Sequence record: NZ_CP117815.1
Length of the DNA stretch: 56,207 nt
Direction: 5' to 3' (one strand)
DNA from: a plasmid
Shown here: positions 2,154-23,525 of the stretch, one piece after another
How the letters are laid out: each line of letters starts with the position of its first letter
Numbering within the stretch: position 1 is the first letter of the stretch
Program-made: the position numbers and the translations under genes
The notes under the pieces: model-generated
The model's database searches: none
What the model was told of the DNA's origin: nothing
The model's input: the letters and a program-made list of their open reading frames with translations, nothing else

Positions 2154-2381
2154 TGGTCAGCTATAAGAATCATTTCATCACAAAAAATGTTTTTCATTGC
2201 CTGTATTATTCGAATTGCTAGATTATTGGGATTTTATTGGTGTCATCTTGTGGTATACGCTAAATTGACACTGAGCAAAGTGAAAAAATATGTCAGAATA
2301 GAGCTAAATTTTTAATAAATTGACATAATCAATTTAAAGTCTTAAACTTTATCCTGACGATTTTATAGAAATGGAGTTTTT

Positions 2382-6373: not shown

Positions 6374-6703
6374 CATGTTTTTTTAATACATGCTGTCGAC
6401 CAACAATAATTAGTCTTTTCTGGTAATCAGAAGTTAAATTAACGGATTTACTCTGTAAGCTATTAAACTATTTTTTACTATTAACTGAAAAGTTAATAAT
6501 CATCAGAGCGATCTCCTTGCCAACCCTTAACCCATGTATTTATTACTTGATACTTATCTCCTGTGCAACGAAACGACATTAAATTGGGCTTGTTCCTCTT
6601 TAGCCAATTATAAAAGACCAACCAAAGCGGGGTAGATATTTATCTTGTGGCTCATTCCAATTAAGCCAGATTCTATATATTTCTGTTTTTGCATCGTCTT
6701 TTT

Positions 6704-7540
6704 TCATTTATTTTCTACCTCTACATTGGGCATACCCTTTAAATGATCAATAATTCTATCTACATAACCCTCTATTTTTGTTGCACCACAAATTTTTGAT
6801 AACTGTCTGCCAGGCTCAGTCAACATTACTTTACCAATTGACACTTCATTATTAGTTTTTTTATTAAATTTAAATAAAATAACATCCCCAAAGTAGCTAA
6901 AATATGACTTTTCTCCATCTATATTTATAGAAAAGTGCACTATTGAATCAAAGTTAATTAACCCGATATTATCTAAATGTTGTAATTTTTCAAAATTTAA
7001 CCCTTTTTCAATATAAACCTGATTTTGATAATCAATAATCAAAGGATATAGAGAGCCTCCATGATAAACGCCAAAGGAACATAAGCTAGTAAAAAGCTTA
7101 GCATCAGACTTATCAAGTAACTCAACTAGATTTATAGTTCTTTTGGAAAATGAACCTGGCTTTTCCAATTCACCAGAAAGTAAGTTTGCCCATATGTCTT
7201 GCATTTGCTCATCTGAAACCATTTTAGCTTTTTCAAAGAAAAATCTTAACCAGTCATCATCTACGTCATCTGCTTTAGTCGCTTCCTTCATAGATATTAA
7301 ACATTTTAAAATAATGTTAGAAATATTCTTTTCGTCTTTTATTCCTTGATGAATTTTTCTTTTTTCGTATGCATCATATAGTTCTTGAGATTTAATATCC
7401 GAATTAGTTGAAATTAATTTAGCTTCAGCATCTGCTTTAGCTAATCTTCTAATTTGTTTAGGCTCACAATACCAGCCAATGGCTTTACTCAATTTCTCTA
7501 TAAGCAAATTCAAAGTTTCAGAAGATAGTTTAATATCCAT
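6704..7540 (-). CDS. Hypothetical protein, no confident family assignment.
   Basis: Intact 278-aa ORF in an AT-rich cargo region. Its start ATG lies 5 nt from the downstream resolvase remnant. Confidence 0.4.
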   Translation of the reverse strand: MDIKLSSETLNLLIEKLSKAIGWYCEPKQIRRLAKADAEAKLISTNSDIKSQELYDAYEKRKIHQGIKDEKNISNIILKCLISMKEATKADDVDDDWLRFFFEKAKMVSDEQMQDIWANLLSGELEKPGSFSKRTINLVELLDKSDAKLFTSLCSFGVYHGGSLYPLIIDYQNQVYIEKGLNFEKLQHLDNIGLINFDSIVHFSINIDGEKSYFSYFGDVILFKFNKKTNNEVSIGKVMLTEPGRQLSKICGATKIEGYVDRIIDHLKGMPNVEVENK

Positions 7541-7559
7541 ATTGATTAATATCCTAATT

Positions 7560-7799
7560 TTACCGATTTATATATTTGTATAGTGTAGTCTTTCCTACGC
7601 CAACCATCTTACAAATTGATTGTATTGAATGTTTTTTATTAGCATATAAAGTTTTGACTAACTCTTTTTGTTCGTCAGTAAGCTTTTCTGGCCTTCCTCC
7701 CTGCCTACCAATGGCTCTTGCAGCCTCAAGACCGTCCAGTGTTCGCTCTTTAATTAAATTTCGTTCAAACTCGGATATGGCGCCAAACACATGAAACAT
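7560..7799 (-). pseudogene. Truncated serine recombinase (resolvase) remnant: only the C-terminal linker and HTH part remains.
   Basis: FHVFGAISEFERNLIKERTLDGLEAARAIGRQGGRP...HTH aligns to residues of about 100-185 of the intact resolvases at 2382 and 47386. No catalytic Ser domain is encoded upstream (7800-8030). Confidence 0.6.
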
Positions 7800-8033
7800 A
7801 AACCTACCTGAGGTGTTTCTGTATTAATAGCTTCGGTGATACTATGGAACCGATTCCCTTTTTCTCTAATTTACTCACATAAGAAATAAGATGCTTCAGT
7901 TATCGCCTTAACCGATCCAATCGCCAAACAACCAAAACATTCCCTTCCTTTAGGAAACTTTATACTTTCTCTAATCCAGGGCATTCGGATACCGAGCCAC
8001 TAATTTTATCTGTAACTAGCTTCCCCCTCCTAT

Positions 8034-9311
8034 TTAAAACAAATGAACCAGCGGAACTTCAGACCATCGTGTGGTATAGGCAGGTGATTTTAGTTCAGCA
8101 CGCATGGCCCAAGGTTTTGAAAAACCTTCTGCTGCGAGGCGAATTGTGCTTCGTCCATATTTTTGATTGATTTGGTCAAAGACCGCCATCAATTGTTCCG
8201 TGTGGTTTAGATGCTCGTCACTTGGTTGATGAAACATATCCAGCTGTCGTGGGCTTTTAGGAATTAAATCTTCAAGACATACTCCTGCCTTTTTATAGTA
8301 ATACCTTGGTTTAAAAATGCGTTGCAGACATCGTTTGGCTATTTTGGTAATTAAGCGCAAATCATCTGTGGGATTAATCAGATTAAATTCGATGGACTGA
8401 AAGTGCTGTGCCAAATCTTCCCGAAATCGGTTCGTATGCACAAATACAACCAGACGCTTCGCCACTAATTGCTGGCGACGCATTTTCTCCACCGCACGAG
8501 CACAATGACTACTGATTGATTCCTCAATCGAAGCAAGTTGGGTTTGCATCTGACCAAAACTTTTAGATGACATAATACTTTGTTTAGGCTCTATTGCCTC
8601 TAAACCGCTACAAGCAATTCCTTGAAGCTCCATGGCCGTACGCATCAACACGACGTTAAAACATTTCTTCAGAAGGTGAGGATTGGTCATTGCCAAATCA
8701 TAAGCCGTATGAATGCCTCGCGAAATTAATTTATTGGCCCATTGCCGCCCTACCCCCCAAATGTCCCCAACGGAAATCTGTTGCAATAGCCGCTCACGAT
8801 TCGAGGAGATATTAAACACAGGGATTTTATAAACTTTTTTGCATAAATGATTGGCGGCTTTGGCTAGTGTTTTGGTCGGCCCAATGCCGATGGAAGTGGG
8901 TATTCCCGTGTGCCTCAAGATTTTCTTTTGTAACTGCTCGCAAAACAAATCATGTGAGTTAACTGGTAAACTCCTTAAATCAAGAAACGCTTCATCAATC
9001 GAGTAAATTTCGATATGGGGCCAGGCTTCTTCAATAGTGCACATCACGCGATGACTCATGTTACCATACAACGTATAATTTGAGGAAAAAGCTTTCACGC
9101 CATGCTGTTCGCACAAATGTTTAATTTTGAAGTATGGCTCGCCCATGGCAATGCCCAATGCTTTGGCTTCATTCGAGCGTGCGATACAACAGCCGTCGTT
9201 ATTGGATAGCACCACGATGGGGACATCCTTTAAATCAGGACGAAACAAACGCTCGCAACTGGCGTAAAAATTGTTGCAGTCGATAAGGGCAAACATCTCA
9301 GGCAAGCTCAT
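8034..9311 (-). CDS. umuC: Y-family translesion DNA polymerase subunit UmuC.
   Basis: N-terminus [22 protein letters not shown] is the classic UmuC start. 425 aa. Overlaps umuD by 14 nt. Confidence 0.9.
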
Positions 9312-9804
9312 GTAGAACCAAAGTCACCACTCCCCAAATCACCATCTCACTGTCCTCTGTAATGTCAATGGGTTGAAATTTGGGATTAGCAGGAAGTAAT
9401 TGCACCCTTCCCCCTTTTTTCGAAAGGCGTTTAACTGTAAGCTCACCGTTCACAGCTGCAATGACAATGCGTCCATCCGAAGGTTCTATGCTTCTATCGA
9501 CTAACAGCCAGTCGCCAGAAAAAATTCCAGCATCCACCATAGACTCCCCTGTGGCTTGCAAAACAAAGGTAGACGATGGGTGTTTAATAAATTTGGTGTT
9601 TAAATCAAGATACCCCTCGATGTAATCATCGGCCGGTGATGGAAATCCTGCTTGAATTTTGCTAGCAAATACCGGCAATTGATACGATACATGACTCTTT
9701 AGACGCTCTAATTCAGCAAGTTGAGATAATGATATACGAACTGCTTTGGTAGGCTCACCCCTTGGGCGACCCGCCCCTACTCTTTTTCCGCCTCGTGGTG
9801 ACAT
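9298..9804 (-). CDS. umuD: UmuD (LexA-like S24 self-cleaving peptidase subunit of Pol V).
   Basis: S24 core [20 protein letters not shown]...VKRL carrying the catalytic Ser/Lys dyad. Sits upstream of and overlapping umuC. Confidence 0.88.
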
Positions 9805-9938
9805 GATGATTCTTTTTTTGATTTACGTACAAATATCATAGACAAGGAAAAATAAGCTGTAAATCCCGCCTCAGAACAACATGAGTTGAAATCAACACTA
9901 AGTCTTCGAGAATATTAAGAAAATTATTTTTAAATTTT

Positions 9939-10607
9939 TTATTCAGATAATGGCTCCATCGCCAATGGATGGTCAAAATTGGCTTTGTTCACTAAAGTAG
10001 TCACTCGATACCCTTGTAAATCCTCATAGGGATAAGGCTTCATCAAAGCGACTAACTGTTCTTTAGGGCATTGAATGTTATTGAGCCAAATGACTTGGCC
10101 TTTTTCATCTAAAATCAACGGCATACGATTGTGCACCGGTTGCATCAAGGGATTCGCATCGGTTGTAATCAGGCAGCAAGAATGAATTACTTCATCGTTT
10201 TGCTGCCAAGTATCCCGAATAGCAGCAACAGCCAGCAAATCATGATTCTTTTTTTGAAAAAAATAAGGCTGTTTTACACCATCCTCTTGGTGCCATTCAT
10301 AAAAGCCACTCATAGGGATTAAACAGCGTTTCGATTTTATTGCCTGACGAAAAGTCGGCTTTTCAAAAACTGTTTCGGCTCGTGCATTGATGAGATTTCC
10401 TAATTTTTTTCTGTCCGTTGTCCAGGAAGGAATCAATCCCCAACGCAATAATACGCATTGAATTTCATGACCAACGGTTTCAACAAGACATACTACATCA
10501 GCTCCTGGAGAAATATTAAAGCGCGGAGGTATTTCAATCGCATTGGCTAGATGAAATTGGTATTTTAGCTTGTCATAAGAAGCAATATAAGCAAATCGAC
10601 CACACAT
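9939..10607 (-). CDS. SOS-response-associated peptidase (SRAP/YedK-like abasic-site processing protein).
   Basis: Protein starts MCGRFAY, giving the catalytic Cys2 after Met removal. The track's longer ORF, starting at 10685, adds 26 non-conserved residues. ...SGFYEW motif present. Confidence 0.8.
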   Translation of the reverse strand: MCGRFAYIASYDKLKYQFHLANAIEIPPRFNISPGADVVCLVETVGHEIQCVLLRWGLIPSWTTDRKKLGNLINARAETVFEKPTFRQAIKSKRCLIPMSGFYEWHQEDGVKQPYFFQKKNHDLLAVAAIRDTWQQNDEVIHSCCLITTDANPLMQPVHNRMPLILDEKGQVIWLNNIQCPKEQLVALMKPYPYEDLQGYRVTTLVNKANFDHPLAMEPLSE

Positions 10608-10904
10608 CTTTTCATCCACCGAAAGAGTTATTGTCAGTATAATACTAAATCTCAAATAATGAGAAAAATCAGGCGAAATATTCATTCATTAAAACAATAT
10701 TTGCAACACGAGCAATGATATCCAAATTTAGCACCCTCTTTAGTTCAGAAAACTGTATTAACCCGGCTAACCATTTTTATATTAACTCAAAATTTCTAAA
10801 GATGAGTAACGACATGGATATCGACAAAGATATCATCACAGAGACCATTACAGGTATCACAAAAAGAATCATAATAGATATATTTATAGGTACCATATGG
10901 ATAT

Positions 10905-11180
10905 TTATATAGATATCCATATGAAAACATATAAGATATCAACAAAGATAACATAATGATATATAATTCGTTATCTTAGTTTATCACGCCTATATTTTAT
11001 ATAGGTCACAGCGCAAAAGGCAAATATACAGATTAGGTATCTTTATGGGTATCTACTAAGATACCCTTTAGATATCTTTATAGGTATCTTTTGGATAACA
11101 AAATGGTTTAATACTCTCCTTTTAGATATCTTATAAGATCACACTTTAAGTATCCATTTAGATATCACTTAGATATCATT
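10905..11180. repeat. Iteron array: at least four copies of TTTAGATATC plus variants (T/G)AGGTATCT and GGGTATCT, directly upstream of parA. Candidate centromere (parS-like) and/or replication iterons.
   Basis: Copies seen at about 10911, 10934, 11034, 11048, 11071, 11081, 11124, 11160 and 11170. An AGATAAC...GTTATCT inverted repeat lies at 10945-10975. Confidence 0.6.
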
Positions 11181-11332
11181 CATATGTGATTATGATTTAC
11201 AAAAAAAAATCCATCTTGATCGGAAGGTAAAAACATTATAAACATTTGTAAAACGTCAACATTAAATAATATTGAAATCTTCGTAAAATTGCATTTTTAT
11301 CATTACTTTATAGTTTACATGGTTTACGTTTT

Positions 11333-12394
11333 ATGATTAAAATCATACAAAACATCAACCACATAATGAGATTCAATATGGATATACAAAACAATGTCAC
11401 TCAAAATCACCAACCCAAAAGAGCAATATCTGATGTTGCAGATTTTCTCGGCATCTCAATGCAAGCCGTCCATAAACAATTAAAAAATAAAAATATAAAT
11501 TGCGAAAAAATAGGTAACAAATCTTTTTTAACATTTGAATCAGCTAGAGAGTTATTTAATTTTAAGTTCAAGCGAAAAAAAATCGCCGTTCAAATTGTTA
11601 AAGGTGGAACTGGAAAAACTACAACAATCAATAATATAGCTAGTTGTGCCAATACTTATGGAGCAAGAGTGCTATTGATTGATGCAGATCCACAGGGTAA
11701 TTTAACAGACGCAAATGGGATTGACGCGGAAGAATATCCTGTATTAATAGATCTATTGAAAGATGGAGCATCAATTCAAGAAAGCATAGTAACAGTTTCA
11801 CAAGGATTAGATCTAATACCAAGCCGCATTGAGAATGTAATTCTCGATAATGAAATTGTCAACGGAAGGTATCCATTAGAGAAGCTTTATAATAATTTAT
11901 TAAGTAAAGTCGAGAACTATTATGACTTTATATTGATAGATTGCCCGCCAACTATGGGACAAGCCGTAACTGCCGCTAGTCTGTACGCTGATATTATTCT
12001 AGCCCCTTTAAATCCTGATAAATTTAGCGCTAAAGGGTTAAAAATATTAAAGCAAGAAGTTGATACATTAAATAAACATTTCCATAAAAAAATTGAATAT
12101 AAGGTATTTTTGAATAAATTCAGTTCAAAAACAATTTTATCTGATAAAGCAATCGTATCACTTATTTCTGACCCAGAATTAGAAGGGAAGGTATTATCTA
12201 CTACAGTACAGTATGCGCAAGAGATACCTAATATTACAGATGATAACAAAAGCTCATTTAGTAATTTGAAAAAATCCTTGGTAAGAGATGATTTTGATAG
12301 ATTGACACGAGAGTTACTTGAAATAAACGCAGAAACTTTTGCTAAAGACGAACGAGCATTATCCAAAAATTTAAAAGAAGAATCTTTAGCATAG
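11333..12394 (+). CDS. parA: Type Ia partition ATPase ParA/SopA-like, with an N-terminal HTH extension.
   Basis: Walker A KGGTGKTTT and LIDADPQGNLT are deviant-Walker ParA motifs. About 100 aa of N-terminal DNA-binding extension is typical of P1 ParA/F SopA. The exact start is uncertain. Confidence 0.8.
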   Translation: MIKIIQNINHIMRFNMDIQNNVTQNHQPKRAISDVADFLGISMQAVHKQLKNKNINCEKIGNKSFLTFESARELFNFKFKRKKIAVQIVKGGTGKTTTINNIASCANTYGARVLLIDADPQGNLTDANGIDAEEYPVLIDLLKDGASIQESIVTVSQGLDLIPSRIENVILDNEIVNGRYPLEKLYNNLLSKVENYYDFILIDCPPTMGQAVTAASLYADIILAPLNPDKFSAKGLKILKQEVDTLNKHFHKKIEYKVFLNKFSSKTILSDKAIVSLISDPELEGKVLSTTVQYAQEIPNITDDNKSSFSNLKKSLVRDDFDRLTRELLEINAETFAKDERALSKNLKEESLA

Positions 12395-13805: not shown

Positions 13806-14093
13806 ATTCAGAGAGATATGTTAAATTTACCTGCAAGTAAATTATCAGAGCATATCTACATTTTCCGTTAAATATTGCTATACCTGCTGGGAAAATGGAT
13901 TTAGCTATATGTGCAAAAATATATTGAGTTGGTTCTATAAATTTATCGCTATTCTTAAACATTCTTTATTATTGGTTCCAATAATACACTTAAAAAAATT
14001 AGTGATGTAAAATTTATTAGCTTTTGATTGTAGGTTTTATTCGAAAATAATTTGCATTATGCAAGTTATTACTACCTGAGGATAGGATATTAA

Positions 14094-15548
14094 ATGGATT
14101 CTGTAAAAATGAATAGGAAAGGGGTAGTTTATTTACACTGGTTAAACGGAATAAGTACATTCAGTTTTGCTATCTTATTTTCATCATTATCACTCTACTT
14201 GACTAAAAATATTGGTTTAAGTCAAGTGCAATCTAATGGGGTTGTAGGTTTTTTTCTGGCTTCAAATTTCATTCTTCATTTTATAGCAGGTTATCTCGGT
14301 GATAAGTGGTTAAGTAATCGATTGCTATTTGCCACTTCGACAATTGTACAAAGTATTGGCCTCATAGTGCTGAATTTTTCCGAATCATTTGTATATTTAG
14401 GATTAAGTTTATTTGTTATTGGATGTGGTTTAGGCTCCACCTGCATTAATTGCCTTATTACACAACAATTTAATAGTCAAGAGGATGAATTAAGAGAAAA
14501 AGCCTTTTTTCATAATTACGGCGCAATGAATATAGGGTTTCTTTCCGGCTATATCTTAAGTGGATACATTGACATCAATGATAAATATGAACATTTATTT
14601 GAAATGAGTAATCTGATTAACCTGATTACAGTATTTTTCATTATTAAATCATGGAAGCATTTTGCTAAAAAAACAGTAGCTATCAGAAAAGAGATCGGGG
14701 ATGGTAAATTGGGATTATTATTAATTTTATTAATAATACCTATTCTCTTTGCGGGATTTTATTACTATTGGTTGGCAAATGGACTCATACTTTCTATAGG
14801 AGCTGCGGCTTTATTTTACATAACGCTATTGGCACATGGTTTTAAAAATAATAATGAGAGAAAAAAAATTTATTCTTTTATATTTTTGACTGTAAGTTCT
14901 ATTGTATTTTGGATGCTTTACTTTGTCGGGCCGATGGGAGTTACTCAATTTTTGAAGTATAACGTGAATATATACGTAGGCACATATTATATTCCCCCTC
15001 AGTGGTTGATGAATTTAAATTCACTTTTTGTGATTATTGGTTCACCTTTAATGATCTCTTTATTAGAGCGACTAAGAAAGAAACACATAATTATTTCTAT
15101 CCCGAAACAATTTATTTGTTCCCTAGTGTTTATCGCATTGTCCTTTTCAGTGTTAGCTCTTGGCATATTAAAATCAAGCCCTGATGGGTTAACTAGTGTG
15201 AATTGGATTGTTGCACATTATTTTTTTCAAGCGGTAGGAGAGTTGCTCATTGCTCCGGTGGGTTATGCTATGATAGGACATCTCGCGCCGGAGAAACTGC
15301 AGGGGCTTATGATGGGAATATGGATGATGGCTTCTGGTGTATCGGTCACATTGTCCAATTATTTTTCCAATTTAATGACTCAATCCGAGTCATTAAATCC
15401 TTTCATTAGCAATGAGCACTACATGAGCGTATTTAATCAACTAGGTCTTTATGCTGTTCTTGGAGCGTTGATACTGTGGTTATTTTCTAAGACTATTGAA
15501 AACAGTATACAAAAAACGTCAAATCGAACAATTGAAGGAATCGCATAA
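14094..15548 (+). CDS. MFS transporter, POT/PTR2 (proton-dependent oligopeptide transporter)-like.
   Basis: About 12 predicted TM segments. N-terminal pattern FSFAILFSSLSLYLTKNIGLSQVQSNG...IAGYLGDKWLSNR resembles the POT family TM1-TM3 region. Confidence 0.65.
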   Translation: MDSVKMNRKGVVYLHWLNGISTFSFAILFSSLSLYLTKNIGLSQVQSNGVVGFFLASNFILHFIAGYLGDKWLSNRLLFATSTIVQSIGLIVLNFSESFVYLGLSLFVIGCGLGSTCINCLITQQFNSQEDELREKAFFHNYGAMNIGFLSGYILSGYIDINDKYEHLFEMSNLINLITVFFIIKSWKHFAKKTVAIRKEIGDGKLGLLLILLIIPILFAGFYYYWLANGLILSIGAAALFYITLLAHGFKNNNERKKIYSFIFLTVSSIVFWMLYFVGPMGVTQFLKYNVNIYVGTYYIPPQWLMNLNSLFVIIGSPLMISLLERLRKKHIIISIPKQFICSLVFIALSFSVLALGILKSSPDGLTSVNWIVAHYFFQAVGELLIAPVGYAMIGHLAPEKLQGLMMGIWMMASGVSVTLSNYFSNLMTQSESLNPFISNEHYMSVFNQLGLYAVLGALILWLFSKTIENSIQKTSNRTIEGIA

Positions 15549-15549
15549 T

Positions 15550-16572
15550 CTATTGGAGTGATAATTCCCCCTGTATTTTGGATAGTTGTATTTCTTCTTG
15601 AGCTAATATTTTTAAGAAATTTTCCAATATATTAGGATTTTTTATCGTTTTAATATCTTTTTTAATTCCATTAACAAGACTTTGTTGCAGTTGAAGTGAA
15701 TTTTGTAAGTTAATATTAGAACAAGCTCGACGATTCAAATCATACACATTATGTAGACGTTTATTTGTTGAAATTTCATTTAACCCTGAATAAGTACATT
15801 CGTCCTTTTTGATTTTCAATCGAGCAGTATTTTCCTGATCACATTGTTCTTGATAACGTTTAGCTTCAGGTGAGTATTTGTTAAATCCTTTCGGTGTTCT
15901 CCAGCGGTTGTTACGAAGGAGTTGAGAAATGATATTAATTTTATGTTGAAAAGTGTCAATATTTTGAAATTGCTCTTTATTGCTTAATGAAAATACAATT
16001 TCGTCTAAAACCTTTTGAGGGGATGATAGCTTTACTCCATGGCTTTTTTGAACATTCAATAACATCCCCTTAACGATATTGAGTTCGTTTATAGGTAGTT
16101 TATCGTCTAATTGATTAAGAGTAATATTATTAATTACTCTATTTTTTTCTTTATTATTGGTATCTGCTGAAACAAGATAATCCATTCTCTCGTTTATATC
16201 ATTTCTAGATGTAGGTTTTTTTTCTTTTATTTCTATAGTGTTTTCTTTCTCTTTTGAGAGAAATTGTAATTTGCTTTGAAGTGTTTCTGTAATTGCTATA
16301 AAAGATCGAGGTACACCGTAATATTTAAATCTTTTTCGGATAATCAGTCCTTCTTCTTCTAAATTTTTTAGGTAGATATAAATCCTGCTTTCACTAAAAC
16401 CGAGTTCCGCAGCAAGATCAGGAATTTTTTTTGTAAACCATAATTTATTTTCGCGTTTTAAAAGAGTGCCTTGATAATGAAATATGATTTTATCTAAAAG
16501 CAGAGCTTCTTTAGGGCAGTTAGTTAATGAAAGAAGCTTGTTAAATCTATGATAGTAAATTGAATTATTCAT
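15550..16572 (-). CDS. Hypothetical protein with N-terminal winged-helix-like domain; possible replication or regulatory protein.
   Basis: ...IPDLAAELGFSESRIYIYLKNLEEEGLIIRKRF... is a wHTH-like segment. The C-terminal part is Lys/Asn-rich. Downstream of, and likely co-transcribed with, the small HTH gene at 16593-16799. Confidence 0.35.
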   Translation of the reverse strand: MNNSIYYHRFNKLLSLTNCPKEALLLDKIIFHYQGTLLKRENKLWFTKKIPDLAAELGFSESRIYIYLKNLEEEGLIIRKRFKYYGVPRSFIAITETLQSKLQFLSKEKENTIEIKEKKPTSRNDINERMDYLVSADTNNKEKNRVINNITLNQLDDKLPINELNIVKGMLLNVQKSHGVKLSSPQKVLDEIVFSLSNKEQFQNIDTFQHKINIISQLLRNNRWRTPKGFNKYSPEAKRYQEQCDQENTARLKIKKDECTYSGLNEISTNKRLHNVYDLNRRACSNINLQNSLQLQQSLVNGIKKDIKTIKNPNILENFLKILAQEEIQLSKIQGELSLQ

Positions 16573-16592
16573 AAAACATCCATGTGGTGAAA

Positions 16593-16799
16593 TTACTTAA
16601 TTAACCCTGACGTGGCCAACATATAGATTAGCTGAGGCGTGGTTTTGCAATTAAAGCTAGTCTTTAAGTCACTAAGTCTATAGAGGATGTATCTTTTTGA
16701 TTTTTTGGTATCTTCAGCGATTTCGGTAACTTGGCTACCGTTTATTATCATTTTTATTATCTGGCTATCAACATGGTCAATTACCATTAAAAGCTCCAT
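16593..16799 (-). CDS. Small LuxR/GerE-type HTH transcriptional regulator (stand-alone DNA-binding domain).
   Basis: IINGSQVTEIAEDTKKSKRYILYRLSDLKTSF...QLIYMLATSGLI fits the GerE/LuxR HTH consensus (G.s..EIA..L.iS..TV..h...i..KL...r.eL...A...GLI). Confidence 0.45.
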   Translation of the reverse strand: MELLMVIDHVDSQIIKMIINGSQVTEIAEDTKKSKRYILYRLSDLKTSFNCKTTPQLIYMLATSGLIK

Positions 16800-16805
16800 T
16801 TTTAT

Positions 16806-16852
16806 TTAAATGCATCCCAAGTGATATAATTTATAACTTGAAATGCATTTAA
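16806..16852. promoter_or_regulatory. Operator/promoter: a perfect 10-bp inverted repeat (TTAAATGCAT ... ATGCATTTAA) flanks an extended -10 element, TGaTATAAT, in the divergent region between the LuxR-like gene and the thioamidation operon.
   Basis: Left arm 16806-16815, right arm 16843-16852. TGATATAAT at 16822-16830 is oriented toward the + strand operon starting at 16971. Confidence 0.45.
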
Positions 16853-16970
16853 GCAAGAAATATTATTATTTTTAGCAATAAATTTTATTGCATGAAATAC
16901 AGGTTCATTGAATACACTAATGTTCTCTTGTATGATTCGGTTAATTAATAGGATTTTAGATTGATGTCAT

Positions 16971-18233
16971 ATGAGTGAATTATCTTGGGATAGGGTAAAA
17001 ACGGACATAGCTCGTGTTAATAAACGCCTCTATGAAATATTAGAAACCATAGATGGCATTCAAAATATGCTTTTTACTGTCCTTGAATATCAGTATGGAC
17101 AAATCATTGCGGATGAGGACTATTTTTATTTGCCAAATACTTGTGGAAAGCTATCCTCGGTTCCATTTTCAATGGTTTTAGAAAAAAATCTTGAAATGTT
17201 TATTGAATTTAAAGGGAAGTCAAGCACACACCAAGTCTATAAAGAAGGGGATTTTTTAAGCGTTAGTTCACTTTATAATGCTTCAAATACTCATCATCCC
17301 ACAGATATACTGCAAATATCATCAGGTGCAAGAAATACCTTTTTACTTTGTCCTGTGGCAGACGCAAGGCCACATGCCAGTTTAGAAAAATATTTTAAGG
17401 CTGACATTCCTGTGCCAGATGAGCTTGGAAATCATTATTTAACCTTTAAGAGTTTATGTGAGGCAGCCAACTGTAAGTGGCGTTCAAAATTATTGGTGTT
17501 TCCTTCTGAAATTGTAACGTTAATTAAAGAGAATAAATTGCCAACTCTTTTGAGTTTAGTCATGGAATTTGATTCTAATCAGACAGGTTATTATGCAAAC
17601 TTACCTTTTTATAATTATCTAATGGCCTACGTCCGAGCCAATAATCCTGAAATATCTCAAAATGAATTTACTAATAACGCCATTAGTCAATTGATTACTA
17701 TAGGTACGGGACAAGTTCCCGGTTACGGTTTAGCCGTAGGGGATGATTTATTGCCCTTAGATTTTATTGTTGAGACGTATCGCGATATATATAAATCCAA
17801 ATACACTCCTTTTGTTATGGAGCCTGTTCATTTTGACAAAAATAAAAACAACCCTGTTTTTTATTCGATCCTCAAAGAAGAGATGGCTTTTAAGCCTACC
17901 TCATTTTCAAATAAACCACAGCGTTGTGAATTAATATACGATACTTATTTTCAGTACGCTGATCATATAAAGAAATTAGGCCATCTTAAGAATACGCCAT
18001 TTTTTGAAAGTGCAACAATGCTCGATTTAACACTTTTTCATGAAAAGAACAATCAAGTGACTAATAACTTATTTAAACTACCTAGGGAGACGATTTTTTC
18101 TTACGATCCTCGATTTTTGGAAGTAACAAATAAACTTGGGTATTCAGTTGATCAATTCCCTTCGAAAACAACGTTTTTAGTAGGATGTTTTGGTATTAAA
18201 TATAATGAGAATAACGACACTGTTATGCATTGA
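16971..18233 (+). CDS. Hypothetical 420-aa protein, first gene of the thioamidation operon. No recognisable motif.
   Basis: Intact ORF with RBS-like GGATTTTAGATTGATG context. Followed without a terminator by the ATP-grasp gene. Confidence 0.5.
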   Translation: MSELSWDRVKTDIARVNKRLYEILETIDGIQNMLFTVLEYQYGQIIADEDYFYLPNTCGKLSSVPFSMVLEKNLEMFIEFKGKSSTHQVYKEGDFLSVSSLYNASNTHHPTDILQISSGARNTFLLCPVADARPHASLEKYFKADIPVPDELGNHYLTFKSLCEAANCKWRSKLLVFPSEIVTLIKENKLPTLLSLVMEFDSNQTGYYANLPFYNYLMAYVRANNPEISQNEFTNNAISQLITIGTGQVPGYGLAVGDDLLPLDFIVETYRDIYKSKYTPFVMEPVHFDKNKNNPVFYSILKEEMAFKPTSFSNKPQRCELIYDTYFQYADHIKKLGHLKNTPFFESATMLDLTLFHEKNNQVTNNLFKLPRETIFSYDPRFLEVTNKLGYSVDQFPSKTTFLVGCFGIKYNENNDTVMH

Positions 18234-18267
18234 TCCTCTTCAGGACTATGAATTAATCGATTGTGAG

Positions 18268-19368
18268 ATGCTTCTTCAATTGGGCATTACTCCCTTTTTT
18301 TTGATTAAAGATGCATCTAAGGCTGTTAAGGATCGGGAAAATGTATTAGTAAACTCATTTTCATATGAAGATATCCTAGCAATTTGTGATTCAATTCGTC
18401 CAAAGTATATCGTGTGTTTTTCTGAGGATATGTTCGTGGATATAGCAAAAATCCGAGAACATCTAAAGATTGCTGGTATGAGTTCGAATACGGCAATGCT
18501 ATTAAGCCACAAGGATCTTATGTATCAAAAGTTGGATGGTTCATTTCCATTTCCTAAAACAACCACATTGATTGAATCTCCAAATTTAAAATCAATTCAA
18601 GAAAAGATAGGTGTTCAAGAGATTTTTGTTAAACCTATTAATTCCTCTGGTTCCTATGAGACCTATCATATTAAGACTGAGAGAGAGTTTTCTAATTTTT
18701 TAGCCAATAAGAAAGAGGATGAGGAAAACTATATCGCTCAAGCTTATGTGGCAGATGATTTATATCATTCGGAGTTGGTAGTTTTTGATGGGAACATTTT
18801 GTTTGTAGAAGCCAGGAAATATACCCATCCAAACCATTTAATGGTTAGTAAAAATTTTCCTATATTTAGTTTGAATATTTTAGAAGCGCCTCAACGACAA
18901 TCAATTATTGATGCTTCAGTTAAGGTGAGCCAGTTATTGGGATTCCATAATGGGGTACTTCATACTGAATTCTTCATGAATGAGGATGGTTATATTCAAT
19001 TTATCGAAACCAATGCTAGACCACCAGGTATTGGTTTAAATAAGTTGTACCAGAGAAAATATTCCATAAGCCTTGAAACAATTTTATGTTGTATTGTTTG
19101 TGGAGTTGAACCTCCTAGCATGGTAGAAAATAAAAGTCACTTCGTATGTGGTTACTTTCCTACAAAGATGGGGGTTATAAAAAAGATAAACAAACCTGAA
19201 CTTCATGTTCAAAATGAATGGACTTTTTTTGTTAAGCCTGATGATACAAGCGAACAAATGGCACATATGTCTAAGTCAGCGATGGTTCTTTGTTGGGATG
19301 ACTCTGTAACTGAAATAAATAAGACTGGTAACTTTCTTGCAGAGCAAGATATTGTAGAGGTTTATTGA
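18268..19368 (+). CDS. ATP-grasp family ligase.
   Basis: C-terminal ATP-grasp signature ...LHTEFFMNEDGYIQFIETNARPPGIG... (E-x-N-x-R). The ORF track begins at a TTG (18190) that overlaps the upstream gene; the first plausible ATG after the upstream stop is 18268. Confidence 0.6.
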   Translation: MLLQLGITPFFLIKDASKAVKDRENVLVNSFSYEDILAICDSIRPKYIVCFSEDMFVDIAKIREHLKIAGMSSNTAMLLSHKDLMYQKLDGSFPFPKTTTLIESPNLKSIQEKIGVQEIFVKPINSSGSYETYHIKTEREFSNFLANKKEDEENYIAQAYVADDLYHSELVVFDGNILFVEARKYTHPNHLMVSKNFPIFSLNILEAPQRQSIIDASVKVSQLLGFHNGVLHTEFFMNEDGYIQFIETNARPPGIGLNKLYQRKYSISLETILCCIVCGVEPPSMVENKSHFVCGYFPTKMGVIKKINKPELHVQNEWTFFVKPDDTSEQMAHMSKSAMVLCWDDSVTEINKTGNFLAEQDIVEVY

Positions 19369-19515
19369 ATTAAAAATAGATTATAGCCTCATTTTGGCTG
19401 CTGATGAGTTTTTAGTAAGATCTTTAAACAGTTGTTCGTTCATATTTCACCACAATTGTTAAAAATATAAATAAATTATATATATCGTTTATATAAAAAT
19501 CTACAGGTTATAAGA

Positions 19516-19767
19516 ATGCATGAATACCAATTAATAGAGTTTAGTTCGTCCAAAAAAGAAATCCAATTGGTTTCTAATCAATCAAACTTGCAACAAGTAT
19601 TATTAGAATTTTATAAAGAGAAGTTTGAAAAGATGTTTGATGAAGACGGTTGTTCAAAGGGATACATTTCTGTATTTGTTAACTCAAAACAAATTACATC
19701 AGTTAAAGAAATTGCACTTAACCCTAATGATGAAATCTGTATTGTAACTTCGATATCAGGGGGGTAG
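19516..19767 (+). CDS. ThiS/MoaD-like ubiquitin-fold sulfur-carrier protein ending in a free Gly-Gly.
   Basis: 83 aa with C-terminus ...NPNDEICIVTSISGG-stop, the canonical beta-grasp sulfur-carrier C-terminus. Immediately upstream of the E1-like gene (4-nt gap, RBS GAGGAA). Confidence 0.7.
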   Translation: MHEYQLIEFSSSKKEIQLVSNQSNLQQVLLEFYKEKFEKMFDEDGCSKGYISVFVNSKQITSVKEIALNPNDEICIVTSISGG

Positions 19768-19771
19768 AGGA

Positions 19772-20794
19772 ATGGAACGGTATAAACGCCAGATCGCAGT
19801 GATCGGAGAGCAAAGTCAAAAAATACTAAGTAATGCAAGAATTATGATCGTTGGTCTAGGCGGTATCGGATGTCCTGTTGCTCAATATCTTGCCGCTGCT
19901 GGTGTTGGAAAGTTAATCCTAGTCGATAATGATAAAGTAGATCTTTCTAATTTACATAGACAGATTTTATTTAATGAGGCAGATGTCGGAGATTATAAAG
20001 CTGAGAAAGCGAAAGTTGCTCTAAGTCAAGTTAATTGCAATATAGTTCTTGAAGCATACACCAATAAATTTGATGTAGATTTCGGTTACTCATCAGTCTC
20101 AGATGTCGATCTGATCATCGATGGAACAGACAATTTTGAAACGAGATACCTTATTAACGATATTTGTGTCTTACAAGAAAAAGTATTTATAAGCTGTAGT
20201 ATTTTTGTAAATGTCATTCAGCTTGTTTTATTTGATACGAAACATTGCTGTTATCGTTGTTTATATCCTAACCCGCCTCCTACAGGTGCAATTCCTAACT
20301 GTTCCGAAGCGGGTGTTTTAGGCACAGTAACAGGAATAGCCGGAACCATGGCCGCTAACCTTGCTCTAAATTATTTACTTAAGGTAGAGGATGGGGAAGC
20401 ACCACAAGTACGAATAGTAGATGCAAAAAACTTTAGTATCTCCTCTTTGACTATAAAGCAAAATAATGAATGCATTGCATGCAAACAAAAGAAAATCAAC
20501 TTTGATTATTTGCAAACCAGTAGTGCTGATTATGGGATCTCCATAGAAGATCTTGATAGAAACAAGCATTTTCTGGTTGATATAAGGCAAAAAGAGGAGA
20601 GAGAGATTATAAAGTTAGATGATGATTTATTTTTTCCTATTAAGGATAATAATAATTATGCGTTTTTTTTATCTTATAAAGATAAAAAATTAGTATTTTA
20701 TTGTGCTTCAGGGTATCGAAGTAAATTGTTTGCTTCAGAGCTTAGAACGTTAGGCGTTGATGCTTATTACCTCAAAACGAGTCTGTCTAAATGA
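19772..20794 (+). CDS. E1-like adenylyltransferase (ThiF/MoeB/MoeZ family) with C-terminal rhodanese domain.
   Basis: YKRQIAVIGEQSQKILSNARIMIVGLGGIGCPVAQYLAAAGVGKLILVDNDKVDLSNLHRQ is the canonical ThiF/MoeB nucleotide-binding motif. Two CxxC pairs (CCYRC, CIAC) are present. The C-terminal FYCASGYRS is a rhodanese active-site CxxGxR loop. Confidence 0.85.
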   Translation: MERYKRQIAVIGEQSQKILSNARIMIVGLGGIGCPVAQYLAAAGVGKLILVDNDKVDLSNLHRQILFNEADVGDYKAEKAKVALSQVNCNIVLEAYTNKFDVDFGYSSVSDVDLIIDGTDNFETRYLINDICVLQEKVFISCSIFVNVIQLVLFDTKHCCYRCLYPNPPPTGAIPNCSEAGVLGTVTGIAGTMAANLALNYLLKVEDGEAPQVRIVDAKNFSISSLTIKQNNECIACKQKKINFDYLQTSSADYGISIEDLDRNKHFLVDIRQKEEREIIKLDDDLFFPIKDNNNYAFFLSYKDKKLVFYCASGYRSKLFASELRTLGVDAYYLKTSLSK

Positions 20795-21852
20795 TTATTA
20801 GGCATGCAGAAACTTCTTTTAGAGCACGTCATTTCAGTGAAACACTAAACTTATTGAATCAGTTTAAGAAACTAGCGGGAATTACTCGATTAGCAGACTT
20901 AACACATTTAGATTACACCAGCCTACCCGTCTATACTGCAATAAGGCCTAGAGCAAAATCATTAACAACGAGTCAAGGAAAAGGATTAACAAAGGAAGCA
21001 GCTAAATGTTCGGCCTTGATGGAGTCGATTGAGGTGTATTTTGCTGAAGAAATAATTCCACAAGTGACTAATAAATCAGAGCTTGAATTAACACAAAGTA
21101 ATAACCTTTTTATACCAATAAATCAACTTGCAAACTCAGTGCGGTTTACCAATCCCTCACAGCCAATAAATTGGGTATATGCTGATTTAGTATTCTCAGG
21201 GAAGACCATTCTTGTACCTTTTGCAGAATATTCATTAAATTCTTATTTACCGGAAGTTTTAATTTATTCTCCTGATACAACAGGACTCGCAGGAGGAAAT
21301 AACTATAAAGAAGCTCTGTTACACGGAATTTTGGAAGTAATTGAGAGGCAAGACGCGCAACAGATAACCGAGATTGCTTTTGTTAATAGCAATTTAGTTG
21401 AAAATTTATCAATAAGGTTTGATTGTTTCATTACTTATCAAGAAAATTATTATAGAGTTCCTTCATTTGAAGTGTTGCTTAAATCAAAAAATCCTTTTGA
21501 AAATCAAATCCTATTTAAGGGTAGTGGAAGCCATTTAAATAAAAAAATAGCCTTAAATCGTGCACTCACTGAAGCCATTCAATCGCGAGTAACTACTATA
21601 GCAGGTTCTCGAGATGATCTAATTAATACTAAATATGATTCTAAGGCCAGTGAGTTTCCTGTTGTTATGAATAAAAAGAACTTCGATGAAGTACAGGATT
21701 ATTCTGTAGGGACAATAGAGGATGCACTTTCTGTACTCTATGAAAAGATTAAAGAAAATAATCAGGATATTTTAGTGTACACGTATTATGACAAAGAAAT
21801 TTGTATTGTGAAGGTTAAACTAATTTCTATGGACTTGATAAGCCATGTATGA
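20791..21852 (+). CDS. YcaO-domain protein (ATP-dependent peptide-backbone amide-activating enzyme).
   Basis: TSQGKGLTKEAAKCSALMESIEVYF and TGLAGGNNYKEALLHGILEVIERQDAQ match the two conserved YcaO motifs (sGKG.t...A..sAl.Ea.E ; G.A.G....A.l.gl.E.iER). Overlaps the upstream gene by 4 nt. Confidence 0.8.
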   Translation: MIIRHAETSFRARHFSETLNLLNQFKKLAGITRLADLTHLDYTSLPVYTAIRPRAKSLTTSQGKGLTKEAAKCSALMESIEVYFAEEIIPQVTNKSELELTQSNNLFIPINQLANSVRFTNPSQPINWVYADLVFSGKTILVPFAEYSLNSYLPEVLIYSPDTTGLAGGNNYKEALLHGILEVIERQDAQQITEIAFVNSNLVENLSIRFDCFITYQENYYRVPSFEVLLKSKNPFENQILFKGSGSHLNKKIALNRALTEAIQSRVTTIAGSRDDLINTKYDSKASEFPVVMNKKNFDEVQDYSVGTIEDALSVLYEKIKENNQDILVYTYYDKEICIVKVKLISMDLISHV

Positions 21853-22879
21853 AACAGTCGTTTTTTTAGAAACCTCTTTATCCCATCAAGAAGCGATGCA
21901 TCTATTGCCAGATGCAAAGTATCTACCATCAATTAAAAAGGGTGATGTGCTTAAATCAATAAATGATGGATATAAACGAATTGTCATCATTGATGGAAAT
22001 TTTTCTTGTGTTCCTTCTGTTTGGCATAAAGAAATATTAACTGCCCTAGACTATGGTTTAGAGGTATTCGGAGCTGCTTCAATGGGGGCTTTGAGAGCAG
22101 CAGAGCTGGATGCTTTTGGTATGAAAGGGTATGGGCGTATTTATGAGATGTATAAGAATGAAGAAATTGATGGTGATGATGAAGTTGCCATTGCTTATTC
22201 TAAATACAACAATGAGCAAACCATTCCTTTGATCAATATTCGTCTGACGCTTGAAAGAATAAATATAACTAATAAGGAAACGATTTTAGATTCTATTCGA
22301 TCAATATTTTATGCTGAGAGAACATGGGGTAGGATTGCCCAACAGGTTTCAGAGGAACTTTATCATTTAATTAAGTCCAATTATGCGGACGTGAAAAAAG
22401 AGGATGCAAAATCCTTATTGTTTTATTTAAATCACCAGCAAATCCTTCCAATGACTTTAGCCTTTGGTAAGAAAAAAAGAAATTTTACCCTTTTTGAAAA
22501 AAAATTAATTGAAGCTACTTTATCGCCTGTTTGGTTGAATTCTCATGAACTAGAGCAAATAGGAGAAGTGGCTCATCTTCAGCGAGCTGAAAATATTGTT
22601 AAATTACTATCCATTCCTAAAACAAAAGCTAATATGCTTCATTATCAATCTATAATAGCAATGCTAGATAAACAAGAATACGAAATAACCGAATGCGAGC
22701 TTATCTACCAGGTAGAACTATTTAGAGAGGAGCGTAATCTGTTGAAGGGAGATGAGTTTGTTAATTGGTTAAAGGATAGAGGTTTGTATGACTCCAATCT
22801 AGAGCAACTCTTTTACGACTATGTAAAATTATCTAAATACTTTGCGATTACCTACGATTACAATAGCTATTTCAATTAA
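21845..22879 (+). CDS. TfuA-like protein (YcaO partner in peptide thioamidation).
   Basis: ...IVIIDGNFSCVPSVWHKEILTALDYGLEVFGAASMGALRAAELDAFGMKGYGRIYEMY...DGDDEVAIAY matches the TfuA core (IIDG.F...V.H.EIL.AL..G..V.GA.SMGALRAAEL...GM.G.G.I...DDEVA). Overlaps YcaO by 8 nt. Confidence 0.85.
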   Translation: MYETVVFLETSLSHQEAMHLLPDAKYLPSIKKGDVLKSINDGYKRIVIIDGNFSCVPSVWHKEILTALDYGLEVFGAASMGALRAAELDAFGMKGYGRIYEMYKNEEIDGDDEVAIAYSKYNNEQTIPLINIRLTLERINITNKETILDSIRSIFYAERTWGRIAQQVSEELYHLIKSNYADVKKEDAKSLLFYLNHQQILPMTLAFGKKKRNFTLFEKKLIEATLSPVWLNSHELEQIGEVAHLQRAENIVKLLSIPKTKANMLHYQSIIAMLDKQEYEITECELIYQVELFREERNLLKGDEFVNWLKDRGLYDSNLEQLFYDYVKLSKYFAITYDYNSYFN

Positions 22880-22922
22880 ATTCCACACCCTAAAAATTTT
22901 TTCCACTTTTTTATTATCCTTG

Positions 22923-22942
22923 CACCTAGGTGAATGCACCTG
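22923..22942. promoter_or_regulatory. Perfect 10-bp palindrome CACCTAGGTG plus an adjacent half-site repeat GCACCTG, 28 bp upstream of the small ORF/csrA-like operon; candidate operator.
   Basis: CACCTAGGTG at 22923-22932 is self-complementary. GCACCTG at 22936-22942. Confidence 0.35.
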
Positions 22943-22949
22943 ATCTTAA

Positions 22950-23177
22950 ATGATGATTCAATGGCATTATCGCTTATCAAAGAAATTCATTATGAATGCA
23001 GAACAAGAGGTGTTCGATATTTTAGAAGGTTGTATTTTGTGCTTGCAAAAAGCAGCTACAGAAATCGGTGGCTTTGATTTTGATAAACACGCACAAGCAG
23101 CAGTGTTTGCATATTCTTTATTAAAGCGGCAGCAATTGTTTTTAATTTATCCATTTGAGAATGAGACAGTGCATTAA
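22950..23177 (+). CDS. Small hypothetical protein (75 aa) directly upstream of the csrA-like gene; positionally comparable to lvrB of Legionella ICE regulatory modules.
   Basis: Intact ORF. No motif recognised. The assignment is by position only. Confidence 0.35.
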   Translation: MMIQWHYRLSKKFIMNAEQEVFDILEGCILCLQKAATEIGGFDFDKHAQAAVFAYSLLKRQQLFLIYPFENETVH

Positions 23178-23233
23178 ACGATGCTATCAATAAATTACTT
23201 TTTCTAAATAATCAATAGAAGAGGAAGGGGAAT

Positions 23234-23392
23234 ATGTTGATATTAAAACGCAGGGTAGGGGAGACAGTAGCGATAGAAAACAAAGTGTTTTGTATGGTAC
23301 TGGATCATCAACGGGATGGTCAGTTGAAGTTAGCGTTTGATGCGCCAGAATGTGTTCCATTCCATCGTTTTGAAATTCAAGAGGGTTCATGA
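23234..23392 (+). CDS. csrA: CsrA-family RNA-binding regulator paralog (52 aa; lvrC/csrT-like). Not in the supplied ORF track because it is under 60 aa.
   Basis: Translation MLILKRRVGETVAIENKVFCMVLDHQRDGQLKLAFDAPECVPFHRFEIQEGS: MLILxRxxGExxxI followed by V.v..v.......lg..AP..v.i.R.E matches CsrA. Strong RBS GAGGAAGGGG 4-13 nt upstream. Confidence 0.8.
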   Translation: MLILKRRVGETVAIENKVFCMVLDHQRDGQLKLAFDAPECVPFHRFEIQEGS

Positions 23393-23525
23393 AAAAAATT
23401 CAGGATGGAGCTTATAGACGAGAAATCAGTTGGGATGGAACTATGATTAATCGATTAATAAAAAAGTTTAGGAAGTGTTTTACTGGAATTCATGACTAAT
23501 TGTTAGGACAAATAAGGATAATACA

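Follow-up and report, generated by a model that had tools for sequence, protein, structure and literature searches.

In archaea, the YcaO/TfuA system that acts on McrA is encoded by overlapping ycaO and tfuA genes, and a ThiS-type carrier, a beta-grasp protein ending in Gly-Gly (GG), is the presumed source of its sulfide. As the work of Liu et al. (2021) is summarised in later articles, archaeal TfuA hydrolyses thiocarboxylated ThiS (ThiS-COSH) to provide sulfur for YcaO (PMC8153245, PMC8939145, PMC13063428). Genes for ThiF, MoeB, MoaD and rhodanese proteins are sometimes found near the archaeal genes, and their presence beside ycaO-tfuA was noted as early as 2017 (PMC5589413). Here, we describe a related locus on a bacterial plasmid (sequence record NZ_CP117815.1), of which we analysed a stretch of 56,207 nucleotides, hereafter called the window. 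The window is a pLPL-like plasmid of Legionella pneumophila, and its positions 14000-23500 are 99.9% identical to plasmid pLPL of L. pneumophila str. Lens (NC_006366.1) and to two further L. pneumophila plasmids. As in archaea, ycaO and tfuA overlap; on the plasmid, they are accompanied by a gene for a GG-terminated ThiS-type protein, which is followed directly by a gene for an E1-type enzyme. The four genes are the following (all positions refer to the window).

19516-19767, plus strand: ThiS/MoaD-like sulfur-carrier protein of 83 amino acids ending in SISGG-stop (direct reading of the open reading frame (ORF), Pfam, AlphaFold2 (AF2), Foldseek).
19772-20794, plus strand: E1-type adenylyltransferase of 340 amino acids, with a ThiF/MoeB domain (residues 1 to ~240) and a C-terminal rhodanese domain (residues ~250-340) (Pfam, NCBIfam, alignment to PDB sequences).
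20791-21852, plus strand: YcaO of the TfuA-associated (thioamide) type, an enzyme that activates backbone amides with ATP (Pfam, TIGR00702, PDB).
21845-22879, plus strand: TfuA, with the TfuA domain at residues ~4-196 and an extra C-terminal part of ~150 amino acids (Pfam, NCBIfam, PDB).

Our analysis makes it likely that the carrier and the E1 make up a plasmid-borne module dedicated to relaying sulfur into a pathway of thioamidation by YcaO/TfuA. Delivery of sulfur to YcaO-TfuA is supported by the abutting or overlapping arrangement of the four genes, by the closest solved relatives of YcaO and TfuA (6pe3 and 6xp8), which are archaeal thioamide enzymes, by the published TfuA mechanism, which uses ThiS-COSH, and by independent operons encoding YcaO, TfuA, an E1 and a GG-terminated MoaD. 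These four lines of evidence favor the proposal of a preliminary description of this DNA that the sulfur would go to thioamidation and not to thiamine or molybdenum cofactor (Moco) synthesis. That sulfur-delivery model is an already published paradigm, and the genes are already annotated, RefSeq naming them "MoaD/ThiS family protein", "MoeB/ThiF family adenylyltransferase", "YcaO-like family protein" and "TfuA-like protein". New here are an unannotated 20-codon ORF beside the four genes, an accompanying 420-residue protein and ATP-grasp enzyme, and the fusion of the E1 to a rhodanese domain, which sets it apart from the other TfuA-linked E1s that we sampled.

The spacing of the four genes is tight throughout. 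The start codon of the E1 gene lies 4 nucleotides past the stop codon of the carrier gene, with a GAGGA Shine-Dalgarno-like sequence overlapping that stop; the ycaO start overlaps the E1 stop by 4 nucleotides (ATGA), and tfuA overlaps ycaO by 8 nucleotides. Both the order ThiS-E1-YcaO-TfuA and its abutting or overlapping spacing are the same in all related loci containing these genes. In comparison with the archaeal YcaO-TfuA system, the Legionella locus thus differs in that carrier and E1 are part of one abutting and overlapping block, with the E1 fused to rhodanese; it further differs in the extra ~150-residue C-terminus of TfuA, in its aerobic bacterial host, in being plasmid-borne, and in its likely substrate, which the conserved sequences suggest to be a 20-residue peptide instead of McrA.

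The preliminary description presented the small protein as a GG-terminated carrier with no C-terminal extension, and direct reading of the ORF at 19516-19767 bears this out. The protein ends in VTSISGG followed by TAG (GGG GGG TAG, 19759-19767), and all 42 complete homologues (48-100% identity) have the GG-stop at 83-84 residues, the longer database entries merely reflecting upstream start-codon calls. The sole exceptions (2/44) are two single-contig copies from Logan assemblies, P0027 and P0044, which are frameshifted mid-gene and have lost the GG terminus, and which are probably assembly errors or pseudogenes. Pfam ThiS (PF02597) matches the carrier with 23.1 bits against a gathering threshold of 22.5, in an alignment that runs through the terminal GG, and 26 of 32 carrier homologues match Pfam ThiS and no other family; NCBIfam moaD_arch reaches 28.6 bits, under its cut-off of 49.5. 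An AF2 model built with a 32-sequence alignment has a predicted local distance difference test score (pLDDT) of 92.2 and a predicted TM-score (pTM) of 0.82, and it has the topology beta-beta-alpha-beta-beta-beta with a disordered GG tail; the single-sequence model was uninformative (pLDDT 48). Compared with the PDB by Foldseek, the model best matches HVO_2177, SAMP1, Urm1, a MoaD-like protein, TtuB and CysO (TM 0.55-0.68). As modelled, the carrier is a beta-grasp protein with a free GG terminus, and the outcome that the preliminary description had named as refuting, a small protein that does not model as this fold, was not observed. Word-based searches from the carrier, with the single sequence as well as with a profile, returned only Legionellales-type sequences of at least 48% identity and no sequence bridge to canonical ThiS or MoaD.

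Dedicated pairs of a MoeB-rhodanese E1 and a small carrier protein are also found in secondary-metabolite gene clusters, QbsC-QbsE-QbsD of thioquinolobactin synthesis being an example. Carriers of this type have residues beyond the GG and need a JAMM peptidase. By contrast, the GG is terminal in the Legionella carrier, and we found neither a JAB/MPN nor an E2 protein when we scanned the cluster genes and 10 other ORFs of the window (part of its ORFs) with Pfam, nor in the RefSeq annotation of pLPL or with PADLOC. The statement of the preliminary description that no processing peptidase is encoded nearby therefore agrees with these searches.

The second protein of the pair combines an adenylation domain with a rhodanese domain. 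Pfam ThiF matches residues 4-234 (3.6e-68) and Pfam Rhodanese residues 261-339 (1.8e-5), and residues 3-238 align to E. coli ThiF (1zud, 1.3e-39), all of whose catalytic and zinc residues the E1 has kept, with Uba4 (6yub) and MoeB (1jw9) aligning as well. Both zinc-binding CxxC pairs and the CASGYRS rhodanese loop, which the preliminary description had pointed out, can be read directly from the sequence, and the four zinc Cys are invariant among nine homologues of 58-81% identity: the pairs are C160-YR-C163 (nucleotides 20249-20260) and C234-IA-C237 (20471-20482), and the loop, C311-ASGYRS with the Cys codon at 20702-20704, places the active-site Cys in a six-residue loop. The RYxRQ, GxGGxG, NLHRQ and DGTDN motifs are likewise invariant in these nine proteins, as are the rhodanese residues Cys311-x4-Arg316-Ser317 and Cys177 of the crossover loop, which in the alignment pairs with the Cys of NCRTAGV, the corresponding loop in E. 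coli ThiF. By these sequence features, the architecture of the E1 is that of MoeZR, Uba4 and MOCS3. MoeZR, which works with CysO and MoaD in Mycobacterium, Uba4, which works with Urm1, and MOCS3 likewise have an adenylation domain, zinc CxxC pairs and a C-terminal rhodanese Cys, and they thiocarboxylate a GG-terminated beta-grasp protein; by analogy, the same is predicted for the Legionella pair. In those systems, however, the sulfur goes to cysteine, Moco or tRNA, whereas we propose that in Legionella it would go to a peptide backbone.

Placement of the pair in this group raises the question of whether it could be a spare or horizontally acquired ThiS/ThiF or MoaD/MoeB pair of thiamine or molybdopterin synthesis that merely lies beside ycaO-tfuA. 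RefSeq and UniProt names of these proteins do include "molybdopterin converting factor 2 (subunit 1)" and "thiamine biosynthesis protein ThiF", and NCBIfam MoeB, ThiF and MoeZ models match the E1 strongly. Every one of these matches, however, misses its equivalog cut-off widely (209.7 bits against 647 for the MoeZ model NF005902 and 211.7 against 275 for the ThiF model TIGR02356), so that the E1 is a divergent paralogue and no orthologue of any primary-metabolism E1. Moreover, we found no thiG, thiH, thiO, thiC, moaE or moaA in the cluster or in the pLPL annotation; the carrier family seems, within the reach of the word-limited search, restricted to this cluster in Legionellales-type sequences; and the order and overlaps with ycaO-tfuA are fixed in all loci. 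The L. pneumophila chromosome, in turn, has its own riboswitch-controlled thi operon, separate from the plasmid (PMC5338858). We therefore regard a role in thiamine or molybdopterin synthesis as very improbable.

The ubiquitin-like fold of the carrier suggests a further alternative in which the carrier is a protein modifier, of the SAMP or Urm1 kind or of the kind found in the defence systems Bil, Bub and CBASS (cyclic oligonucleotide-based antiphage signalling system) with Cap2, the E1 activating it for transfer to lysines of its targets. The Legionella pair has a ubiquitin-fold GG protein and an E1-family adenylation core in common with these defence systems, SAMP1 and Urm1, among its closest structural matches, are dual-function modifiers, and the carrier weakly matches NCBIfam SAMP1 and Urm1-like models. 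Its free GG terminus, the conserved Cys177 of the E1 and weak matches of the E1 core to PADLOC Cap2 E1-E2 models point in the same direction, and attachment of Urm1 works without an E2 or E3 (PMC9574740). Against conjugation, the PADLOC matches cover the shared Rossmann core only and reach at most 63 bits compared with 230-255 bits for ThiF/MoeB models, the carrier itself has no PADLOC match, and the Legionella set differs from Bil, Bub and CBASS-Cap2 in having neither an E2 nor a JAB-type or other deubiquitinase in the ORFs scanned or on pLPL, in the rhodanese domain of its E1 and in its biosynthetic gene context. In addition, the invariant rhodanese Cys points to sulfur chemistry, and the pair lies in one gene block with YcaO-TfuA, the known co-substrate of which is ThiS-COSH. 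The caution of the preliminary description that conjugation stays possible from sequence was fair; the evidence disfavors this function, and we consider it improbable.

A role as sulfur relay for YcaO and TfuA is in line with the relationships of these two proteins. YcaO matches Pfam YcaO (3.2e-37, 129 bits) and TIGR00702 (151 bits) above the respective cut-offs, and it also matches the McrA-thioglycine model TIGR03266 (4.4e-41) with a score of 141, under the equivalog cut-off of 365. At E<1e-3, MJ1094 (6pe3, 9.2e-16), which forms thioamides, is its only relative with a solved structure. Likewise, TfuA matches Pfam TfuA (4.8e-36, 123.6 bits) above cut-off, NCBIfam ThioGly_TfuA_rel (3.2e-53) and NF033432 with a score of 180, under its equivalog cut-off of 235, and it aligns to archaeal TfuA 6xp8 (2.3e-30), with which it has the motif GxASMGALRAxELD in common. 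By sequence comparison, then, the Legionella YcaO and TfuA are related to the McrA-thioglycine enzymes and are not McrA-specific ones. The C-terminal ~150 residues of TfuA (residues ~195-344, window positions 22427-22876) have no Pfam match; this extension is conserved in Legionella-type loci, with similar long forms in the metagenomic loci L023, L034, L065 and L094, and it could be a substrate-binding domain.

YcaO proteins with a ThiF-like partner are well known from azol(in)e pathways for peptides that are made on ribosomes and modified after translation (RiPPs) (PMC5589413, PMC12596934), and by this precedent the E1-like protein might be a non-catalytic YcaO partner, in the style of azoline cyclodehydratases or Ocin-ThiF proteins, that binds the precursor instead of activating a carrier. 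In E1-like partners of this kind, an N-terminal recognition element usually goes with a degenerate adenylation site. The Legionella E1, however, begins at RYxRQ (residue 3) and has no N-terminal RiPP recognition element or peptide-clamp domain, its ATP-binding, Mg and zinc residues are intact and invariant, a cognate GG-terminated carrier is encoded 4 nucleotides upstream, and YcaO is of the TfuA-dependent type. We give this alternative next to no weight.

Carrier and E1 genes beside ycaO-tfuA also occur outside Legionella. TfuA-type RiPP clusters of the thioamitide-like kind (PMC9576775), as well as metagenomic operons, have a local E1 and a GG-terminated carrier by YcaO-TfuA, as here. We scanned metagenome contigs with a TfuA alignment, which gave 80 loci, and searched these with the window proteins. 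YcaO is adjacent to TfuA in 65 of the 80 loci, and an E1 is present in 12, three of which are the Legionella-type cluster and nine are others (some duplicates). In the latter nine, TfuA has 32-39% identity and the gene order is mostly YcaO-TfuA-E1. All seven of these loci that extend far enough encode a MoaD-like ORF of 91-112 residues ending in FPPVSGG-stop, located 3' of the E1 or, in L034, adjoining it. Where the gene is complete, the E1s of these loci end just past the second CxxC, mostly at ~245 residues, and none has a rhodanese domain. Five of the loci, L031, L032, L035, L060 and L079, are independent YcaO-TfuA-E1-MoaD operons with FPPVSGG-stop carriers and ~245-residue E1s lacking rhodanese. 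A local carrier and E1 beside TfuA is thus a recurrent but minority solution. Compared with the Legionella locus, the metagenomic operons have the reversed order, the shorter E1 and a carrier tail of FPPVSGG instead of TSISGG; within this sample, only the Legionella lineage has the rhodanese fusion, places ThiS first and encodes the divergent TSISGG carrier.

A candidate for the peptide to be thioamidated surfaced when the 148-nucleotide spacer that separates the ATP-grasp gene from the carrier gene was aligned across loci.

19381-19443, minus strand: unannotated 20-codon ORF encoding MNEQLFKDLTKNSSAAKMRL, candidate precursor peptide for thioamidation (cross-locus conservation).

The ORF has no RefSeq annotation. 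Sixteen related loci have it in the same place and with a constant length of 20 codons, and the encoded peptides fall into ten distinct sequences. No related locus whose sequence includes the spacer (that of L019 does not) lacks the ORF; none was found in the unrelated loci compared. Pairwise differences are distributed over the first, second and third codon positions as 244/177/449, with third positions enriched, and amino acids are exchanged conservatively. M1, D8 and K11 never vary, the C-terminus follows [KRV]-[MI]-[RK]-[LM], and the consensus is MN[ED]x[LF]xxD[LI]xKxxxxx[KR]M[RK]L. The ORF is the best-conserved part of the spacer (68% pairwise identity versus 17-57%), and upstream of it on the minus strand there are purine-rich Shine-Dalgarno-like runs and a conserved TAnnAT element, which reads TATAAT in the window. 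By conservation and position, this 20-mer is the most likely candidate for a precursor peptide of YcaO/TfuA. We also considered a 61-residue ORF downstream of tfuA (22992-23177) as the precursor and rejected it; although conserved, this ORF is missing from L003 and stands ahead of the gene for the plasmid CsrA. In the window (22992-23392), it lies directly 5' of the gene for the plasmid-borne CsrA paralogue, ahead of TraT and the tra genes, and it probably belongs to regulation of the transfer region and not to the biosynthetic cluster.

Further genes accompany the four-gene block and the candidate precursor ORF.

18205-19368, plus strand: ATP-grasp enzyme of the L-amino-acid-ligase type (Pfam ATP-grasp_4, 7.5e-8; PDB 4wd3).
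16971-18233, plus strand: 420-residue member of a large uncharacterised protein family; its gene opens the conserved core (homologue search).
14094-15548, plus strand: peptide transporter of the proton-dependent oligopeptide transporter (POT) type in the major facilitator superfamily (MFS) (Pfam PTR2, 1.6e-30; MFS_1).
15550-16799, minus strand: two divergent putative regulators, a 340-residue protein (15550-16572) and a 64-68-residue protein (16593-16799) (weak winged helix-turn-helix (HTH) matches; conservation).

The ATP-grasp enzyme has weak NCBIfam matches to DdaF, BacD and PylC, and its best PDB match is the L-amino acid ligase 4wd3 (1.6e-13); an association of ATP-grasp proteins with YcaO-TfuA is known from bioinformatics (PMC8939145). 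The 420-residue protein, searched whole or in halves, gave no Pfam, NCBIfam, PADLOC or PDB-sequence match. Its family nevertheless comprises 718 representative homologues at E<1e-3, typically of 410-450 residues, with motifs that include AGARSxFMLPKI and PVYYSL, while a profile search with the family returned mostly close Legionella relatives. The gene is present in every Legionella-type locus, and in L023 a family member and a long-form TfuA are encoded convergently. Distant relatives occur among housekeeping genes or, on another gammaproteobacterial plasmid, together with a POT transporter and without ThiS, E1 or YcaO; the family thus has no intrinsic tie to sulfur carriers. The POT transporter gene is conserved upstream in Legionella-type loci, and the protein probably provides the exporter or immunity function of the cluster. 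As for the putative regulators, the winged-HTH matches of the 340-residue protein are weak, and the 64-68-residue protein is conserved across loci and has no Pfam match, its HTH character having been judged by eye only.

A variant of the cluster, L020 (metagenome contig Ga0155617_1180, positions 1-11746), has no ATP-grasp gene between the gene for the 420-residue protein and ThiS and has kept the 20-codon ORF (MNDKFCNDIVKTAAFVVMKL). Downstream, on the other strand, it encodes a different Lal-type ATP-grasp protein with a LAL_C2 domain and an EamA transporter, in place of the ATP-grasp enzyme and the POT transporter. This replacement suggests that the pathway needs both a ligase and an exporter to function. 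The linker of the L020 TfuA contains a long acidic (SE)n repeat.

The accessory enzymes also bear on where the sulfur of ThiS-COSH would end up. Sulfur-carrier proteins feed several small-molecule pathways, among them those to thioquinolobactin, 2-thiosugars and thioplatensimycin. In the Legionella cluster, ThiS-COSH might similarly be made for an acceptor other than the 20-mer, yielding a thiocarboxylate or thio-amino acid by way of the ATP-grasp enzyme or the 420-residue protein, or a host protein thioamidated by YcaO. The resemblance of the ATP-grasp enzyme to ligases that use free amino acids and the conserved transporter of a di/tripeptide type would fit such a product, and the nearest characterised YcaO enzymes modify proteins, namely McrA and, in E. 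coli, uL16 (PMC13063428). On the other hand, the 20-codon ORF accompanies all related loci with the spacer, including the L020 variant that lacks the adjacent ATP-grasp gene; distant relatives of the 420-residue protein occur without ThiS and E1, so that this enzyme needs no thiocarboxylate intrinsically; and TfuA is the only protein here for which activity on ThiS-COSH has been demonstrated in homologues. A different acceptor is, in our judgment, rather unlikely.

Several points weigh against a dedicated sulfur relay that serves thioamidation of the 20-mer. The case is built from sequence, homology and predicted structure, and the activities of the proteins are predicted ones. The score of the carrier for PF02597 is marginal, if above the curated threshold, and the best match in a PDB-sequence profile search, to the MoaD-like protein Ta0895, is weak (E = 0.046). 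E1, YcaO and TfuA are all divergent, since they fall under the NCBIfam equivalog cut-offs. No local E1 is present in 68 of the 80 metagenomic TfuA loci, so local carriers are not required in general. With regard to the substrate, the 20-codon ORF lies on the strand opposite to the operon, and a generic promoter scan gave no significant promoter site for it. Finally, the nearest characterised YcaO modifies a protein, McrA, instead of a peptide with a leader, so that a host protein could be the true substrate.

In our model of the pathway, the adenylation domain of the E1 would use ATP to adenylate Gly83 of the carrier, as full conservation of the ThiF/MoeB active site suggests. A persulfide on rhodanese Cys311, presumably loaded by a host cysteine desulfurase, would then attack the acyl-adenylate, and reductive release, possibly aided by Cys177, would give ThiS-COSH by analogy with MoeZR, Uba4 and MOCS3. 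We found no cysteine desulfurase among the pLPL annotations or the window ORFs scanned, so that the persulfide must come from the host. In the preliminary description, the pair was called the minimal architecture for forming a thiocarboxylate; the GG carrier, the E1 and the rhodanese are indeed all present, but the pair is not fully self-sufficient in that it needs the host desulfurase. TfuA would hydrolyse ThiS-COSH and pass the sulfide to YcaO, as shown for the archaeal homologues, and YcaO with ATP would activate a backbone amide oxygen to form the thioamide, a step shown for archaeal homologues only. The most likely substrate of YcaO, judged by conservation and position, would be the 20-mer whose ORF lies between the genes for the ATP-grasp enzyme and ThiS on the other strand. 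Further processing and export of the product would fall to the 420-residue protein, the ATP-grasp enzyme and the POT transporter.

The cluster is widespread in the genus. In addition to the nearly identical plasmids, a version of the nine-kilobase block with ~81-82% identity is found on plasmids of L. pneumophila Paris, L. hackeliae, L. longbeachae and L. sainthelensi, and all 22 plasmid records matching window positions 14000-23500 are predicted to be conjugative. The exact cluster proteins are encoded on ~650-670 contigs, mostly of L. pneumophila; some of these contigs are 3.4-3.5 Mb long, from which we infer that the element is also integrated in chromosomes. The conserved block comprises the POT/MFS peptide transporter, the two divergent putative regulators, the 420-residue protein, the ATP-grasp enzyme and ThiS-E1-YcaO-TfuA, and it is followed at its 3' side by the plasmid CsrA, TraT and tra genes. 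The genes ycaO and tfu were drawn beside Legionella tra regions in a comparative genomics study of 2011, their function then being unassigned (PMC3218107). An Rfam scan of the cluster gave nothing relevant, and a promoter and terminator scan gave counts no higher than in shuffled sequence.

Elsewhere in the window, positions 3492-7540 match the plasmid collection in their first 336 bases only, which correspond to the edge of the pLPL recombinase gene. The ORFs in this region encode a weakly matching PRTase-CE-like protein overlapping a DprA/SLOG-like one, a 232-residue protein and a DUF2806/Abi_alpha-like protein. At the counterpart position, pLPL has a type I-F CRISPR-Cas locus, and the region is possibly a swapped defence island because it sits where pLPL has this locus. 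The plasmid also carries a Tn3-type transposon, with a resolvase gene at 47386-47958 on the minus strand and a Tn3-family transposase gene at 48094-51099.

The pair itself adds little conceptually, since a ThiS-thiocarboxylate donor for TfuA/YcaO and local ThiF/ThiS genes have already been published. What the locus offers is a carrier, an E1-rhodanese fusion, YcaO and TfuA in a block of ~3.4 kb from an aerobic gammaproteobacterium, with a candidate 20-mer beside it, and with such a compact block, physiological (non-sulfide) thioamidation should be straightforward to reconstitute in vivo in E. coli. We tentatively speculate that the cluster makes an undescribed class of plasmid-borne thioamide peptides, in which the antisense 20-mer would be thioamidated via ThiS-COSH, tailored by the 420-residue enzyme and the L-amino-acid ligase, and exported, and the product may be bacteriocin-like or another factor of benefit to the plasmid that spreads among Legionella on conjugative elements. 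The interest of the locus lies less in the pair than in a widely disseminated, uncharacterised cluster with an unannotated candidate precursor gene and with one core gene from an uncharacterised family of more than 700 representatives. Biologically, the value of the cluster is that conjugative plasmids and integrated elements of different Legionella species carry it as conserved cargo.

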